Origin: Candidatus Iainarchaeum sp.
GTDB taxonomy: Archaea; Iainarchaeota; Iainarchaeia; Iainarchaeales; CSSED10-239
DNA length: 6,605 nt
Direction of reading: 5' to 3'
Assembly: GCA_003559395.1 (NCBI GenBank)
Contig: PWLL01000017.1
Location: 1 to 6,605 of the forward strand
Each line of letters starts with the position of its first letter. Position 1 is the first letter of the stretch. The translations under genes were made by a program, and so were the position numbers. The notes under the pieces are model-generated. The model searched no databases. It saw only the letters and a program-made list of their open reading frames with translations, and was not told the DNA's origin. Positions 734-6,605 of this stretch are shown here, piece by piece.

Positions 734-2362
734 ATGATTTCTCAGAAAGAAAAACTTAAACAAATGTACAAAGAAGTAAAAGAAAAAAACATAAAATTTA
801 TAGTGATGACTGGGGGTGTTCTTTCTGGGCTTGGTAAAGGGGTTGCTCTTGCTAGTATAGGCTCTTTAATATCAAATGATCTTAAAAAAGTACCCATAAA
901 GTGTGATGGGTATCTTAATTATGATCCTGGCACTTTAAATCCTGTAGAACATGGAGAAGTCTTTGTTCTTGATGATGGTTCTGAAGTGGATATGGATTTT
1001 GGTCATTATGAGCGTTTCTTAAACATAACTTGTAATGGAAAGCAAAATCTAACTATGGGCAAGATATACAAAGACATAATAGATTTAGAAAGAGAAGGCA
1101 AGTTTCTTGGAAAAACTGTTCAGTTAATTCCTGATGTCACTAATTTTATTCAACAGTCAATTTTTTCAATTGCTCTTTCTCAAAAAGCAGATGTTGTTCT
1201 TTTAGAGATTGGAGGTACTATAGGTGATATAGAAAACGAGCTTTATTTTTTTGCAGTTAAAGAAATGGCCAGATATCTTAAGTCAAATATTTTTAATGTT
1301 CATTTAACTTATGTTCCTGAGATATTAGGTGGTGAACAAAAGACAAAACCAGCACAAACTAGTTTAGAAAAAGTATTTCATAGAGGGTTACAACCAGACG
1401 TGGTTCTTTGTAGATCTAAAAAAAGAATAGATGCTTCTTGTGAAGATAAGTTAGGTGTTTTTTCTGGTTTGTCTTCTGACAAAATCATCTCTGCAGAAGA
1501 TGTAAAAAACATATATGAAATTCCATTAAATTTTAAAAAACAAAATCTTGACGATATTGTTTGTGATAGTTTACAAGTTCCAAAAAACCAAGATTTTGAT
1601 GTGTTTAAAGAAAAGGTAGAAAAAATAACAACCAACCACAAAAACTCAAAAATAAAAACTATTGGAATTTGTGGAAAATATACAAAAATTAATGATTCTT
1701 ATGCTTCTGTTATTGAAGCCATAAACCACGCATCAACTTTTTTTGATACCAAAACAATTGTCAAATGTATAGATACAGAGAACGTAGATTCAGAAACTTT
1801 AGAACAAATAGATGGTTTCATTGTTCCTGGTGGTTTTGGAAATAGAGGTGTTGATGGAAAAATAAACATTATTAAGTACGCAAGAGAAAATAAAAAGCCT
1901 TTTTTAGGTTTATGTTATGGTTTACAGTTAGCAATTATTGAGTATGCAAAAAACGTACTTAACATAAAAGAGTGTAATTCAACAGAAATTGATTCTAAAA
2001 CTCCAAATCCTATTATTAAAATTCTACCAAACCAAGATTTAAATCTGCTTGGTGGTACTATGAGATTAGGTGCATATGAGGCTTGTTTGTTAAAAGGTTC
2101 TAAAGTTTTTTCTCTTTATAACTCTGACAAAGTCTCTGAAAGACACAGACATAGATATGAGGTAAATCCTGAATACCACAAACATTTAGAAGATGATCAC
2201 TTTGTTGTTTCTGGAAAAAGTCCTGATGGTTCTTTAGTTGAGTTTATAGAACTTAAAGATCATCCTTTTTTTGTTGCCACTCAAAGTCATCCAGAGCTTA
2301 AGTCAAGGATTGTTAATGCGCATCCTTTGTTTGTTGGTTTTTTAAAAGCAGTAAATCTTTAG
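734..2362 (+). CDS. pyrG: CTP synthase (glutamine-hydrolysing)
   Basis: 542-aa ORF. The N-terminal synthetase domain has TGGVLSGLGKG (P-loop), YLNYDPGTLNPVEHGEVFVLDDGSEVDMDFGHYERF and EIGGTIGDIE. The C-terminal class-I glutamine amidotransferase domain has the nucleophile Cys in GLCYGLQ, RHRHRYEVN and the catalytic His in QSHPE. Length and domain order are canonical. Confidence 0.97.
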   Translation: MISQKEKLKQMYKEVKEKNIKFIVMTGGVLSGLGKGVALASIGSLISNDLKKVPIKCDGYLNYDPGTLNPVEHGEVFVLDDGSEVDMDFGHYERFLNITCNGKQNLTMGKIYKDIIDLEREGKFLGKTVQLIPDVTNFIQQSIFSIALSQKADVVLLEIGGTIGDIENELYFFAVKEMARYLKSNIFNVHLTYVPEILGGEQKTKPAQTSLEKVFHRGLQPDVVLCRSKKRIDASCEDKLGVFSGLSSDKIISAEDVKNIYEIPLNFKKQNLDDIVCDSLQVPKNQDFDVFKEKVEKITTNHKNSKIKTIGICGKYTKINDSYASVIEAINHASTFFDTKTIVKCIDTENVDSETLEQIDGFIVPGGFGNRGVDGKINIIKYARENKKPFLGLCYGLQLAIIEYAKNVLNIKECNSTEIDSKTPNPIIKILPNQDLNLLGGTMRLGAYEACLLKGSKVFSLYNSDKVSERHRHRYEVNPEYHKHLEDDHFVVSGKSPDGSLVEFIELKDHPFFVATQSHPELKSRIVNAHPLFVGFLKAVNL

Positions 2363-3219
2363 TTTCTTTTAAGACTTATTTCTGTTGCGTATTTTTGTTT
2401 ACCTAAATTTTGTCCTATTTTTATTTTTTTACAGTCTTTTCTATATTTTCTTACTTTATTTTCTTTTTTTTTAATACTTTTTTTAGAAATTATTCCTGGC
2501 CCACCAACACATCCTCCATGACAGAACAAAGCGTCTACAAATTTTGTGTTTTTATTAATTTTTTTTAAAGTTTTTTCTATATTTTCTGGTCCTTGACAAC
2601 AAAGGGTTTGATTTTTAGACAATATTTCTTTTGCGTGCATTGTTTCTGCTACTGCTCCTGCTAAAGGATATATTTTTGTATAGTCGTTATAATATTTATC
2701 AAAATCAGTTGTTTGGTTTTCTTTAGTATCTAAAAGTAGTTTATTTTTTTTTGCATAGTCTATCATTTGTTTTAGTTCTTTAAAGGTTATGGCATAGTCT
2801 ATATCTTTTTTATTTTCTAGTGCTTCTATTTTTTTAGTTATACAAGGTCCAACAAAAACACAGGTGTTTTTTTCTTTAAAATGTTTTTTAATAAATCTTC
2901 CCATAACCACCATTGGTGATGCAATATTTGCAAGATATTCTTTATATTCTGGATATTTATTTTCAATAGTTTTTACTAGTGATGGACAGTTTGTACAAAT
3001 GATTGGCTTTTTTGTTTTTTTAAGTTGTTTTTTGTATTCTGTATTTATTATTTTTGCAGCGAAAGTAAGTTCTGAGACTTTTGAAAACCCAAGTTGTTTA
3101 AGGGTTTTAATTATTTTTGGATATTTAAAATCTACAACAAAGCTAGGTGCTAACAAACAAACACATCTTTTGGTTTGTAGGACTTTTAGCAAGTCAACAA
3201 GTTCTTTTGATATTTCCAT
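2359..3219 (-). CDS. [FeFe]-hydrogenase H-domain-only (Fe_hyd_lg_C-like / Nar1-like) iron-sulfur protein, ultraminimal at 286 aa
   Basis: By-eye alignment to the Clostridium CpI H-domain: LLAPSF ~ AMAPSV; TLKQLGFSKV ~ ALRQLGFDKI; PIICTNCPSLV ~ PMFTSCCPGWV (motif 1, nt 2983-2997); FVGPCITKKIEA ~ VMPCTSKKFEA (motif 2); DIDYAITFKEL ~ DIDAVITTREL; ALFCHGGCVGGPG ~ VMACHGGCVNGGGQP (motif 3, CHGGC at nt 2509-2523). The four H-cluster [4Fe-4S] Cys ligand equivalents (C78, C126, C233, C237) and the PCxxK Lys are present. There are no N-terminal ferredoxin-like domains. Confidence 0.85.
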   Translation of the reverse strand: MEISKELVDLLKVLQTKRCVCLLAPSFVVDFKYPKIIKTLKQLGFSKVSELTFAAKIINTEYKKQLKKTKKPIICTNCPSLVKTIENKYPEYKEYLANIASPMVVMGRFIKKHFKEKNTCVFVGPCITKKIEALENKKDIDYAITFKELKQMIDYAKKNKLLLDTKENQTTDFDKYYNDYTKIYPLAGAVAETMHAKEILSKNQTLCCQGPENIEKTLKKINKNTKFVDALFCHGGCVGGPGIISKKSIKKKENKVRKYRKDCKKIKIGQNLGKQKYATEISLKRN

Positions 3220-3221
3220 AT

Positions 3222-4208
3222 TTATTCTTTTTTTAAAATATATTTTTCATATTTACTGTTTTTGTTTTTTAATAAAACAATCATCGATCTTTTACAATCG
3301 TCAACAATCTCAAAGCTATCTGATTCTTTTTCAACATCTTCTGCAAATTTCAAACAGTCTTCAAAAGAAGGCATGTTTTTTTCTTCTAGATTGTTTCTAG
3401 ATGCTCCCAGATACATATATGCTTTTATTTCTATAAAATCTGCTTTTGTTTTTTCAAAAATATCTATTAGTTGTTTTTGGTTTTCTTTTTTATCGTTTAT
3501 TTCTTTTATGAGTGTGTATCTTATGACTCTTCTTGTTTTTATATCTGGCATTAAAGCAATTGTTTGGTTTAGTCTTTTCCAAGAGTCTTTTATTTTTGGT
3601 TGATTTATAAATAAGTGTTGTTTTTCGTTTGCACTTTCTATTGACAAGTAAAGTTGTGTTGGCAGGCTATTTGTTTCGTTTAGTTTTTTAAGAATTTCTG
3701 TTTCAAGTCCGTTTGTTACTAAAAAAACGGTTTTTGTTTCTGGTCGTTCTTTTATTTTTTTTATCAGTTTATCAAGATCTTTATAAAGAGTTGGTTCGCC
3801 AGATAAAGAAATGGCCACATGGCTTGGAATCAGTGCTTCTTTATATTTGTTTTCGGACACTTTTTTGTTTCCTTTAAAGCCGCTTAGCAGTTTTTTTCTA
3901 GCTTCGTAAAGTCCATCAATCATCTCATCGATATCATCTGAAAACTCACAATCTATAACATCATAAGTCATCTTTTTTGCAGGTCTCCAACAAAAAATAC
4001 AGTTTTGTTGACACCACAAGACTGTTGGGGTTATTTGTACGCATCTATGACATTCAACATTATAAAATTTTTGTTTATAACAAACTCCTTCTTCTCTAAG
4101 TGCTTTTTTATTCCACGAACAAATAGCTATTGCTGAGTGTTTTCCGTAGATCCCATATTTTTTATGTTTTAGATCTTCTATATTTTCTTTTGATATTTCT
4201 TGAACCAT
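3222..4208 (-). CDS. taw1: tRNA 4-demethylwyosine synthase (radical SAM; archaeal Taw1 / TYW1 homologue)
   Basis: 328-aa ORF. The radical-SAM CxxxCxxC lies in WCQQNCIFCWRP (nt 3990-4013). It is preceded by the Taw1-specific auxiliary-cluster cysteines in the pattern AICSW..(12)..GVCYKQKFY..ECHRCVQITP (C30, C43, C56). The SLSGEPTLY (GGEP-type) SAM motif follows. Spacing matches Methanocaldococcus Taw1 (C26/C39/C52 and C62/C66/C69) with a +4 offset. The flavodoxin domain of eukaryotic TYW1 is absent. Confidence 0.92.
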   Translation of the reverse strand: MVQEISKENIEDLKHKKYGIYGKHSAIAICSWNKKALREEGVCYKQKFYNVECHRCVQITPTVLWCQQNCIFCWRPAKKMTYDVIDCEFSDDIDEMIDGLYEARKKLLSGFKGNKKVSENKYKEALIPSHVAISLSGEPTLYKDLDKLIKKIKERPETKTVFLVTNGLETEILKKLNETNSLPTQLYLSIESANEKQHLFINQPKIKDSWKRLNQTIALMPDIKTRRVIRYTLIKEINDKKENQKQLIDIFEKTKADFIEIKAYMYLGASRNNLEEKNMPSFEDCLKFAEDVEKESDSFEIVDDCKRSMIVLLKNKNSKYEKYILKKE

Positions 4209-4230: not shown

Positions 4231-4239
4231 TATTTAAAA
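4231..4239 (-). promoter_or_regulatory. TATA-box-like element for taw1 (leaderless geometry)
   Basis: The minus strand reads TTTTAAATA centred 27 nt upstream of the taw1 ATG (4208), inside the 38-nt gap after the upstream gene. There is no SD-like sequence before the ATG. Confidence 0.4.
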
Positions 4240-4246
4240 GGTGTTT

Positions 4247-4867
4247 TTAACTCACATATTTTAGTATTGTTTTGTTTGTGTTGATTTTGTGTTTTAGATT
4301 GATTATGATTTTATTAAGTTGTTCTATTTTTTTTATTGCTGTTTCTTTCTTAAAGTCTTGTTTTTTCTTATTTGCATCGCCTACGTTAAAGTTTTTATAA
4401 ACAACTGAGGTTGAGACTGTTTCTCCTAGTTTTTTACGATATTCAGAGTCTATTAAAAAGGTATCTAATAAAGCTTCGTATTTTGGGTCTGTAAGTGTTT
4501 CTTCTGAAAGTCTTGCTTTTTCAACATCTTTTTTATATTCTGCGTCTGTTGCCATTCTTAGTTTATGTTTCCAATATATTTTTTTAAAGTTTTTTTTAAA
4601 AGAGTTTATTTTATAATAATTTTCTGCTGATGTTTTTTCTTTTTCCCAAAACTTGTGTTCTTTTTTTTTATCGTCTATCATTTTTTGTGTTTCTTTAATT
4701 ATTTCGTTTATGTCTTTTTTTTTAGGATAGGTTATTTTTCGATTCTCAATTCTAACAAATTTTGTTCTAAAGAATGTTTCCCAATATTTCTTTTCTTCTT
4801 TTGGTATTTTCTTATTTATTTTTTCTTCAAGTTTTGAGATGTCATTTATTGTACTTGATGTGCTCAT
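4247..4867 (-). CDS. Hypothetical protein, very basic and Lys-rich with many aromatic residues; no family recognised
   Basis: 206-aa ORF on the same strand as taw1, ending 38 nt upstream of it. The composition is coding-like (K/E/I/N-rich like its neighbours) and a C-terminal heptad-like segment (IKKIEQLNKIIINLKHKI) suggests a coiled coil. It has no Cys and no recognisable catalytic motif. A purine-rich AAGGA lies about 9 nt before the ATG. Confidence 0.65.
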   Translation of the reverse strand: MSTSSTINDISKLEEKINKKIPKEEKKYWETFFRTKFVRIENRKITYPKKKDINEIIKETQKMIDDKKKEHKFWEKEKTSAENYYKINSFKKNFKKIYWKHKLRMATDAEYKKDVEKARLSEETLTDPKYEALLDTFLIDSEYRKKLGETVSTSVVYKNFNVGDANKKKQDFKKETAIKKIEQLNKIIINLKHKINTNKTILKYVS

Positions 4868-5512: not shown

Positions 5513-6605
5513 TTATTGTTCTTCGGCATAATCTTCTATCTCTTCATCTAATCTTTCTTCTGCTCTCATCACCCACATCTGCAATATCTCGTTTCTTACA
5601 GCTATTCCTTGCACATCAAACAAAAGTTCTGTTTTGTTTATATCTTCTGGATATCTAAGATGTGTTTCTGTTATATCTTGTTCATAAACATGTTCTTTAT
5701 CATTAAAAACAAGGTCGTCTAGTTTTATGTTTGCTGATTTGTTTATTGATAAGATTTTTAGATTTTTTTCTTCTAGTATGTTTGTTATTGCTTCAACATC
5801 GATTGTTTCTTTATAAAACACAATCGATATGTTTCTTTTTGGTTCTTGAGTGATTTCATATTCTTCAAGTATTGAAGATATTTCTTCTTTTATGTTAATA
5901 TATTCTTCTACACTTATTTTTTCTTTAAAAGAGAGGATTATGTTTTCTTTAACAATCAAATCTTGCACTTCTTCTTTTTCTTTAATATAATCAAACTGAT
6001 TAGCATCTGTTATATTTTTATCAGGAACAACTTCTAGATTTTCTGAAACAAAAACATTTATTTCTTCTTCTGCAAATGTTTTTTTAAGATAATTTACATC
6101 TACTTCTGTGTAGATGTCTGTTTCTGCTGACAAGATGATTTTTTCGTTCCAAGATTCTATCTCATATACTTTTTGATCAAATATCATTTCTTGTTGTGTA
6201 CTTAGGTTTTGTTGTTCTTGTGCAACAAGATGTATAAGCGTATCTCCTTTAAACCAACCGACCACGCTTGCAAATAAAGCGTCTTCTTTTTCTGTATGGT
6301 ATGACATTATGGCTTCTACTTTTCCTGCAGGGTGAAAATATTCTTTTGTTTGGTTTGTGTCTGGATTTTTAAATTCAAGTTCTTTTGGAATTTCTAATAG
6401 TCCGTTTTGTAAAATATCTACTTGTTCAAAGATTTCAAGTTCTTGTAATTGCATATATATTTCTTCTTTTTTTTCTGAATCATATCCTACATGAATTAAA
6501 GCAACAATATCTTCTTCAATAGGAATAAAAGATATATCTACTGTGTTTACTCCTTCTATTTCTCTTAATGTGTTTTCTATTGTTGTTTCTTCATAAACGT
6601 TTGGA
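5513..6605 (-). CDS. Hypothetical protein, strongly acidic and Glu/Asp/Ile-rich; the 5' end probably lies beyond the right window edge
   Basis: The ORF track starts it at the ATG at 6452-6454. I translated the same minus frame upstream and it stays open to position 6604: PNVYEETTIENTLREIEGVNTVDISFIPIEEDIVALIHVGYDSEKKEEIYMQLQELEIF... The composition is identical to the rest of the protein. No TATA-like or SD-like signal lies directly upstream of the ATG at 6454. No known family is recognised, and no Cys cluster or transmembrane segment is present. Confidence 0.7.
   Translation of the reverse strand, partial: PNVYEETTIENTLREIEGVNTVDISFIPIEEDIVALIHVGYDSEKKEEIYMQLQELEIFEQVDILQNGLLEIPKELEFKNPDTNQTKEYFHPAGKVEAIMSYHTEKEDALFASVVGWFKGDTLIHLVAQEQQNLSTQQEMIFDQKVYEIESWNEKIILSAETDIYTEVDVNYLKKTFAEEEINVFVSENLEVVPDKNITDANQFDYIKEKEEVQDLIVKENIILSFKEKISVEEYINIKEEISSILEEYEITQEPKRNISIVFYKETIDVEAITNILEEKNLKILSINKSANIKLDDLVFNDKEHVYEQDITETHLRYPEDINKTELLFDVQGIAVRNEILQMWVMRAEERLDEEIEDYAEEQ

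Follow-up and report, generated by a model that had tools for sequence, protein, structure and literature searches.

The window analysed here, a stretch of 6,605 nt on contig PWLL01000017.1 of Candidatus Iainarchaeum sp., contains a gene, hydA, which occupies positions 2359..3219 of the minus strand and runs as one open reading frame (ORF) from ATG to TAA. Its 286-aa product is a member of the group E [FeFe] hydrogenases, the ultraminimal enzymes that consist of the H-domain only, and is of the C-x-N-C-P subtype. This assignment is based on the ORF itself, a match to the Pfam family PF02906, the identity to the enzyme of Ca. Forterrea multitransposorum (Fm), an AlphaFold2 (AF2) model and a Foldseek search. 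The gene for TYW1 (4-demethylwyosine synthase, a radical S-adenosylmethionine (SAM) enzyme with two [4Fe–4S] clusters; TIGR03972, 349.9 bits at a cutoff of 318) is located directly upstream of hydA on the same minus strand (3222..4208). Only a 2-nt spacer separates the two genes, the junction reading AAA AAA GAA TAA at the ATG. At the other end, pyrG on the plus strand is convergent with hydA, and the stop codons of the two genes overlap by 4 nt (2359-2362), leaving no space for an intergenic terminator on either strand.

The hydA product contains PF02906 (Fe_hyd_lg_C) as the sole domain detected in the Pfam scan, with an E-value of 7.6e-47 and a score of 160.5 bits. The match spans residues 18-241 of the protein and profile positions 2-245 of 245. 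The same scan revealed no PF04060, PAS, HisKA, MCP or sigma54 output domain and no Fer4 cluster, and no ferredoxin-type Cys motif is present in the 286 residues. The protein harbors 11 Cys, at positions 19, 21, 75, 78, 120, 126, 207, 208, 233, 237 and 263. Beyond the four cluster ligands described below, only C75 and C21 are appreciably conserved in a 120-member family alignment. The length of 286 aa equals the published group E mean, and both an accessory Fe–S domain and a small-subunit domain are absent. Compared with the H-domain of the hydrogenase CpI, the protein is shorter by about 80 aa, and the alignments distribute this difference over several short deletions, for example one of 8 residues past the APS motif. 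The NCBIfam models TIGR04105 and TIGR02512 (group B and group A, respectively) align with the H-domain part only and score far under their cutoffs. Group B membership, to which the best NCBIfam match (TIGR04105, 149.7 bits) might point, was rejected, as the cutoff of this model is 450, the match is confined to its C-terminal H-domain half and Fer4 is missing. A chance ORF or mis-annotation is ruled out by the 160-bit Pfam match together with hundreds of homologues.

The predicted fold leads to the same identification. The AF2 model, calculated from a 38-sequence alignment, has a predicted local distance difference test score (pLDDT) of 90.4 and a predicted TM-score (pTM) of 0.89. When this model was compared with the PDB by Foldseek, solely H-domains of [FeFe] hydrogenases were retrieved, with E-values down to 7e-16, query-normalised TM-scores of 0.72-0.75 and identities of 22-24%. 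A first-pass annotation, made by eye from the letters of the window, had described an H-domain-only protein about 80 aa shorter than its CpI counterpart, and had proposed a Fe_hyd_lg_C profile search and a structure prediction as checks. The significant match over nearly the whole profile with no second domain, the dispersed deletions and the superposition of a confident model on [FeFe]-hydrogenase H-domains are all in line with that description.

Group E was defined from DPANN archaea as a set of 'ultraminimal' [FeFe] hydrogenases that average 286 residues (Greening et al., Cell 2024, PMC11216029). Its members are monomers made of the H-domain only, in which loops are condensed and proton-transfer residues altered; the group was placed as sister to sensory group C (PMC11216029). 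The representative Fm contained 4.2 Fe per protein on purification and took up the synthetic azadithiolate-bridged cofactor [2Fe]adt, after which the bands and states of the H-cluster were followed by Fourier-transform infrared (FTIR) spectroscopy. Fm catalysed in both directions with a bias to H+ reduction, and H2 was produced in lysates (PMC11216029).

Several searches connect the hydA product with this group. A scan of GTDB genomes with the protein gave five loci, including one on the Forterrea chromosome CP045477, and the nearest named genomes were those of Iainarchaeota/Diapherotrites. The Fm sequence encoded on CP045477 is 55% identical to the hydA product and colinear with it over residues 1-285 with no large gaps, whereas identity amounts to 22-24% for group A structures and to 30-37% for sensory-type proteins. 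A word-index protein search yielded 346 relatives. The best 120 of these, which were aligned for the conservation counts given in this work, are all PF02906-only proteins, mostly of 270-300 aa. In addition, phmmer, run exhaustively against 1.84 billion representatives, returned 2265 matches, among which about 25 are H-domain-only clusters. Next down are multidomain proteins at 30-37% identity, the nearest of which combine Fer4, the H-domain and PF04060 with a subsequent HisKA/HATPase, PAS, MCP or sigma54 activator part. This layout is that of sensory groups C/D and thus matches the published placement of group E. In a neighbour-joining tree (a distance method, calculated without bootstrap or other support values and without groups F/G), the hydA product falls inside the clade that holds Fm (locus L001). 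The class of very small, active DPANN hydrogenases which the first-pass annotation had mentioned is therefore the one to which the protein belongs, given the 55% full-length identity to Fm. The protein itself is known biology, its family having been published in 2024.

The residues around the active site were mapped to CpI by phmmer against PDB sequences (6glz and others, E about 3e-15), and all elements described here are encoded on the minus strand. Three loops carry the cluster ligands. The L1 motif, I-C75-T-N77-C78-P (2983..3000), reads CTNCP where CpI has TSCCP, so that C78 corresponds to the [4Fe–4S] ligand C300 and N77 occupies the position of the proton-relay residue C299. In the L2 motif, G124-P-C126-I-T-K129 (2833..2850; VGPCITKK versus VMPCTSKK in CpI), the ligand C126 is equivalent to C355 and K129 to K358, the residue of the CN- salt bridge, while G124 replaces M353. 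The L3 motif, L231-F-C233-H-G-G-C237 (2509..2529; DALFCHGGC versus EVMACHGGC), provides the ligand C233 (C499) and the bridging residue C237 (C503), with L231 in place of M497. The first-pass reading that the four H-cluster Cys and the Lys of PCxxK are kept, and that C299, M353 and M497 have become Asn, Gly and Leu, is reproduced residue by residue in this mapping. The group A motifs TSCCP, MPCxxK and ExMxCxxGC are not found, their places being taken by CTNCP, GPCITK and ALFCHGGC.

Elements lining the di-iron site are recognizable as well. The family-invariant segment A24-P25-S26-F27 (3139..3150), the equivalent of the AP(S/A) motif, aligns with 'IAPA' of T. maritima HydA and is followed by the 8-residue deletion. 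Its residues A24-P25-S26 presumably correspond to A230-P231-S232 of CpI, the motif lining the 2Fe subcluster at its proximal CN- ligand. A part of the pocket wall would be formed by S101-P102-M103 (2911..2919), aligned to 'SPQ' of CpI (S323-P324-Q325). S101 and P102 are invariant in the family, and M103 is found in 116 of 120 members. At Y184-P185 (2665..2670), the profile alignment to the CpI segment 'aiFgatGG' places Tyr184 (codon 2668-2670) opposite F417. This Tyr is family-invariant and corresponds to Y223 of TmHydS, a residue suggested to serve sensory enzymes as an alternative site of proton relay.

Most of the canonical proton pathway is absent, because E279 falls in a deletion, S319 is replaced by Ala97 and R286 by Gln; only E282 (E61 here) may be kept. 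Cys75 (codon 2992-2994), two residues ahead of Asn77, is present in 98 of 120 members and is particular to the C-x-N-C-P clade. Either Cys75 or Tyr184 could belong to a substitute proton route.

The replacements themselves are a family trait. Asn77 is found in 100, Gly124 in 97 and Leu231 in 108 of the 120 aligned members, and the same residues are present in the active Fm. The possibility that these second-sphere replacements are peculiar to the protein studied here, as the first-pass annotation had implied, is thereby ruled out: Asn, Gly and Leu represent the family consensus. The further remark of that annotation, that sensory hydrogenases show similar replacements, finds support in the literature on groups C/D, in which C299 is mostly Ala, M353 is Gly in about 51%, M497 is replaced and Tyr stands at the F417 position, and also in the sensory-type nature of the nearest multidomain relatives. 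These common substitutions, the Tyr included, together with the proximity to sensory-type enzymes, are what would favor a role of the hydA product in sensing H2 without metabolic turnover, like its group C/D relatives. We consider such a role highly improbable, since the C-terminal PF04060 cluster and any PAS, HisKA, MCP or sigma54 output domain are lacking, no regulator gene is adjacent, and catalysis by Fm is substantial in both directions.

In both the 120-member and the 38-member alignments, the four Cys, K129, the APS and SP elements, E132 and Y184 show no or almost no variation. This retention of pocket residues across the family argues for selection on a di-iron pocket, not on the cubane alone. 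With domain identity, fold, conservation of ligands and pocket, and close homology to the H2-active Fm at hand, the gene is likely to specify an ultraminimal [FeFe] hydrogenase of group E from a DPANN-type archaeon, built from a single H-domain. By analogy with Fm, we infer that the protein binds a di-iron site, is loaded with it in vivo and turns over H2. C78, C126, C233 and C237 would hold the [4Fe–4S] part of the H-cluster, with C237 bridging to the di-iron subcluster, and the latter would sit in the pocket lined by APS, SP, PCxxK and Tyr184. The absence of an accessory-cluster domain requires direct electron exchange with a partner protein, and electrons may accordingly pass between this partner and a surface-exposed [4Fe–4S]H. 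Since the canonical relay residues C299, E279 and S319 are absent, protons have to travel differently, probably along a non-canonical path to the adt amine near the solvent-exposed site, for which Asn77, Tyr184, Cys75 and water are candidates.

Several points weigh against the interpretation as an H2-converting enzyme. No hydE, hydF or hydG lies within the 6.6-kb window, and these maturases are missing from most group E genomes, the closed Forterrea genome included (PMC11216029). The activity of Fm was seen only after artificial maturation, which, together with the missing HydEFG, leaves assembly of the di-iron site in vivo uncertain. Moreover, M497L in the prototypical enzyme blocked proper insertion of the 2Fe unit, and substitutions of C299 other than by Asp abolish or severely impair activity. 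Because these exchanges are harmful in prototypical enzymes, activity of the hydA product depends on the group E context.

The missing maturases and the dependence of all activity data on synthetic [2Fe]adt also speak for another view, that the protein contains no di-iron in vivo and serves as a plain [4Fe–4S] electron carrier, or as an Fe–S carrier or repair factor for Fe–S enzymes such as TYW1 and RimO. The first-pass annotation had offered a Nar1-like scaffold of this kind as its alternative. Yeast Nar1 matures cytosolic Fe–S proteins, and the gene has Fe–S enzymes as its neighbours, with a NifU-SufDBC cluster adjoining it in Forterrea-type loci. We nevertheless regard this view as unlikely. 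Residues that make contact only with the di-iron unit and its CN-/CO ligands (K129, APS, SP, Y184 and C237) remain invariant at divergence down to about 40% identity, and Fm, which has the same replacements, takes the cofactor into a well-defined environment and catalyses. The N-terminal Cys cluster of Nar1 type is absent, as C19 and C21, conserved in 19 and 75 of the 120 members, respectively, are the only Cys at the N-terminus. The closest relatives are bona fide sensory hydrogenases and not Nar1/NARF. Finally, some eukaryotes that lack the maturases still make H2 (PMC11216029).

The neighbourhood of hydA offers a further view of its possible function. Host assignment to the archaea, as in the first-pass annotation, is confirmed by the scores of TYW1 and of an archaeal NAC (TIGR00264, 101.6 bits at a cutoff of 80) in the window, both above their cutoffs, and by RadA in locus L006, which encodes a relative of 76% identity. 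The gene hydA is almost certainly co-transcribed with TYW1, judging from the arrangement of the two genes. The only plausible intergenic promoter element is the archaeal TATA-box-like string TTTTAAATA (4231..4239, minus strand), read directly from the sequence, which ends 22 nt upstream of the TYW1 ATG. It is a candidate promoter of a TYW1-hydA transcript, although such strings are common at the 26-30% GC of the genome.

The linkage to TYW1 extends well beyond the window, to every dereplicated archaeal locus of the C-x-N-C-P subtype that has usable upstream flank. Metagenome contigs were scanned with the family alignment, giving at least 526 relatives, from which 80 loci were kept and dereplicated at 85% identity into 69 clusters. 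Every one of the 15 archaeal I-C-x-N-C-P clusters has TYW1 upstream on the same strand. The gap to hydA is at most 65 nt in 13 of them, and one small unannotated ORF intervenes in the other two; neither of these small ORFs (L011 and L014) has a Pfam match, and no hidden ferredoxin or flavodoxin was detected in them. The same arrangement is found on three further long contigs (L091-L093), in Forterrea and in the other three archaeal GTDB loci. L006 reproduces the whole gene order of the window, NAC, orf205, TYW1, hydA and pyrG, and in a locus whose hydrogenase is 45% identical the spacing between TYW1 and hydA is zero. The downstream genes vary among the archaeal loci (pyrG, MFS, NifU-Suf, RadA and AAA_14). 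The archaeal loci nevertheless share a wider block, composed of ArgRS, a DsbA-like gene, TYW1, hydA, variable genes and RadA, and hence are not independent observations. In many of them the DsbA/thioredoxin-like gene is divergent and located upstream of TYW1. In Forterrea-type genomes (L001 6865-10383, L091 4864-8375, L003, L004 and L013), the hydrogenase gene is convergent with NifU-SufD-SufB-SufC.

Members of the same clade are also encoded in bacteria. In about one quarter of the public family members, Trp stands in columns that are otherwise invariantly Gly, which identifies them as genes with UGA=Gly (code 25) translated with the wrong table. In-frame TGA codons number 1-12 in the bacterial loci, among which are those of the closed SR1 genome CP006913 and of a metagenome-assembled genome of Absconditabacteria. 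Loci with code 25 are L010, L012, L019, L028-L034, L036, L037, L059 and L094, and P0023, P0026, P0042, P0087 and P0098 are examples of the corresponding protein records. Group E is thus also present in UGA=Gly bacteria belonging to the candidate phyla radiation (CPR) and is not archaea-only, so that a DPANN origin is not strictly defining. The copy in SR1 carries the annotation 'NtrC family histidine kinase'; no hydrogenase was listed for this organism in the SR1 genome paper (2013). A gene for a radical-SAM methylthiotransferase is found on the same strand within 31-2730 nt in 9 of about 10 bacterial clusters that are informative, downstream of the hydrogenase gene in some lineages and upstream in others. 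The enzyme scores above the TIGR00089 MiaB/RimO cutoff, with RimO as its best match. In the neighbour-joining tree, the C-x-N-C-P proteins form a single clade in which the window protein and L006 are an early branch and bacterial groups are interleaved with archaeal ones.

The remaining 40 clusters constitute a sister clade with S-S-[V/T/A/P]-C-P in place of C-x-N-C-P. Among 120 flanking ORFs of this clade, no radical-SAM gene was found; the neighbours include RNase Z (13), subunits of pyruvate:ferredoxin oxidoreductase (POR) or OOR (7), LSM and aminoacyl-tRNA synthetases. Across loci L039-L090 (for example L048 984-1874 and L043 3186-3974), the hydrogenase gene lies downstream of LSM and RNase Z or beside POR/OOR. 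The association of group E genes with POR/OOR was noted previously (PMC11216029). Taken together, group E appears to hold two functionally distinct subfamilies.

The published view of group E is that of ferredoxin-dependent fermentative H2 evolution (PMC11216029). From the gene neighbourhood, a two-cluster radical-SAM enzyme is suggested as the possible partner in the C-x-N-C-P clade, either in place of ferredoxin or alongside it. As a tentative refinement, one with less than even chances, the whole clade may be a dedicated redox partner of such enzymes. The hydrogenase would then reduce the radical-SAM cluster of TYW1 in archaea or of a RimO/MiaB-type methylthiotransferase in CPR bacteria, and H2 oxidation, or electrons supplied via the exposed [4Fe–4S]H, would be coupled to reductive SAM cleavage. 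It is conceivable, though less likely than not, that a fermentative H2 valve is not the primary role of this clade, which DPANN archaea and UGA-recoded CPR bacteria would share as a result of inter-domain transfer.

The upstream position of TYW1 in all archaeal clusters and on the three further contigs, a position retained at identities as low as 45% in spite of changing downstream genes, the MiaB/RimO-family gene near most bacterial members and the lack of radical-SAM neighbours in the sister clade are consistent with such a partnership. In addition, every radical-SAM enzyme needs a low-potential one-electron donor, and the donor of archaeal TYW1 is not known (PMC8941971). On the other hand, the archaeal observations are not independent, owing to the wider shared block, and tight spacing is the rule in compact genomes. 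A fusion between a radical-SAM enzyme and an H-domain, which would be a Rosetta stone, was not found among the best 150 of the 2265 phmmer representatives, where the long matches are sensory proteins. In the 4122-aa record P0137, seven tandem units of Fe_hyd_lg_C plus small subunit precede domains for flavodoxin and FAD binding; a tandem array of eukaryote-type hydrogenase genes was probably merged here into one gene model, which is unrelated to the hydA locus. For radical-SAM clusters, moreover, H2 is a weak reductant at the partial pressures of natural environments, and Fm is biased to H+ reduction, not to H2 oxidation. The SR1 genome encodes three flavodoxins (SR1 genome paper, 2013), so that another donor is at hand there. 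A rough post hoc estimate puts the chance of a coincidental association in both domains at about 1e-3 to 1e-2, which is not decisive.

A Lys-rich ORF of 206 aa (4247-4867, minus strand) lies directly upstream of TYW1 and has no Pfam or NCBIfam match, but a 60% identical counterpart is found at the equal position in L006. Another minus-strand ORF, 5513-6454, encodes a very acidic protein of 313 aa, likewise with no Pfam or NCBIfam match. At the left edge, a type II N6/N4 DNA methyltransferase enters the window in frame 3 of the plus strand (3-653), recognizable by motif IV (HPAPFP) and motif I (DMFGGTGT). Its frame is broken by TGA (93-95) and TAA (321-323), leaving only the last 51 aa as an ORF, and the gene is likely a pseudogene or an assembly error. 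Recoding is unlikely here, as all six intact genes of the window are free of internal TGA. Scans of the window for tRNA genes and with Rfam gave no matches.

With the hydA product, the family whose members were presented in 2024 as the smallest H2 catalysts known gains a sequence that branches off early and separately. As minimal scaffolds, these enzymes are of interest to biotechnology. More important than the single protein is the comparison of loci, which separates group E into two clades with different active-site motifs and genomic partners. One of them is linked with radical-SAM enzymes in archaea and bacteria alike, in hosts that mostly lack known maturases. The Cell paper makes no mention of TYW1, wyosine, radical SAM or CPR bacteria (PMC11216029), and no published mention of the linkage between TYW1 and the hydrogenase was found. 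The archaeal TYW1-hydA and bacterial radical-SAM linkages, the bacterial members and the two-clade structure are new leads. They bear on the role of hydrogenases in ultra-small symbionts and on the in vivo reductant of archaeal radical-SAM enzymes. A partnership with TYW1, if true, would be the first hydrogenase–radical-SAM redox pair and would identify the physiological electron donor of archaeal TYW1.

Compared with known systems, the hydA product is closest to Fm. Both proteins have 286 aa, contain the H-domain only and replace C299, M353 and M497 by Asn, Gly and Leu, and the Fm motifs ICGNCP, VGPCFSKK and DMLFCTGGC follow the common patterns I-C-x-N-C-P, V-G-P-C-x-x-K-K and D-x-L-F-C-x-G-G-C. 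Both genes also have TYW1 directly upstream on the same strand. They differ in 45% of their residues and in the downstream gene, which is pyrG here and NifU-SufDBC in Forterrea; furthermore, the neighbour-joining tree sets the window protein apart, together with its 76-80% relatives, on an early branch of its own within the clade. The sensory group C/D enzymes (TmHydS, TamHydS) resemble it in the loss of the canonical proton pathway, the small residue at M353, the non-Met residue at M497 and the Tyr at F417, but they possess an N-terminal Fer4, a C-terminal PF04060 and PAS, kinase, MCP or sigma54 domains that are all absent here, and mostly have Ala at the C299 position, where the hydA product has Asn. 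With the group A enzymes (CpI, CrHydA1, DdH), the protein shares the fold (query-normalised TM about 0.72), the four Cys, the Lys and the APS and SP pocket elements, whereas identity is only 22-24%, about 80 loop residues and the F-domain are missing, C299N, M353G and M497L are present, a deletion covers E279 and Ala takes the place of S319. The Nar1/NARF (IOP1) proteins also match PF02906, keep the four C-terminal cluster Cys and act on Fe–S client proteins. They are eukaryotic, longer proteins of the cytosolic iron–sulfur protein assembly (CIA) pathway, with an extra N-terminal Cys motif that binds a second [4Fe–4S] cluster; by this description, the basis of the comparison, the hydA product differs in lacking the N-terminal Cys cluster and in keeping the di-iron pocket residues. 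Finally, eukaryotic TYW1 is supplied with electrons by a fused flavodoxin domain (Young & Bandarian 2021, PMC8941971). The TYW1-hydA operon may be a functional analogue of this arrangement, in that a dedicated electron-donor module is tied to TYW1 in both, realized there as a fusion with an FMN/NAD(P)H donor and here as an operon in which an H-cluster would take the donor role.

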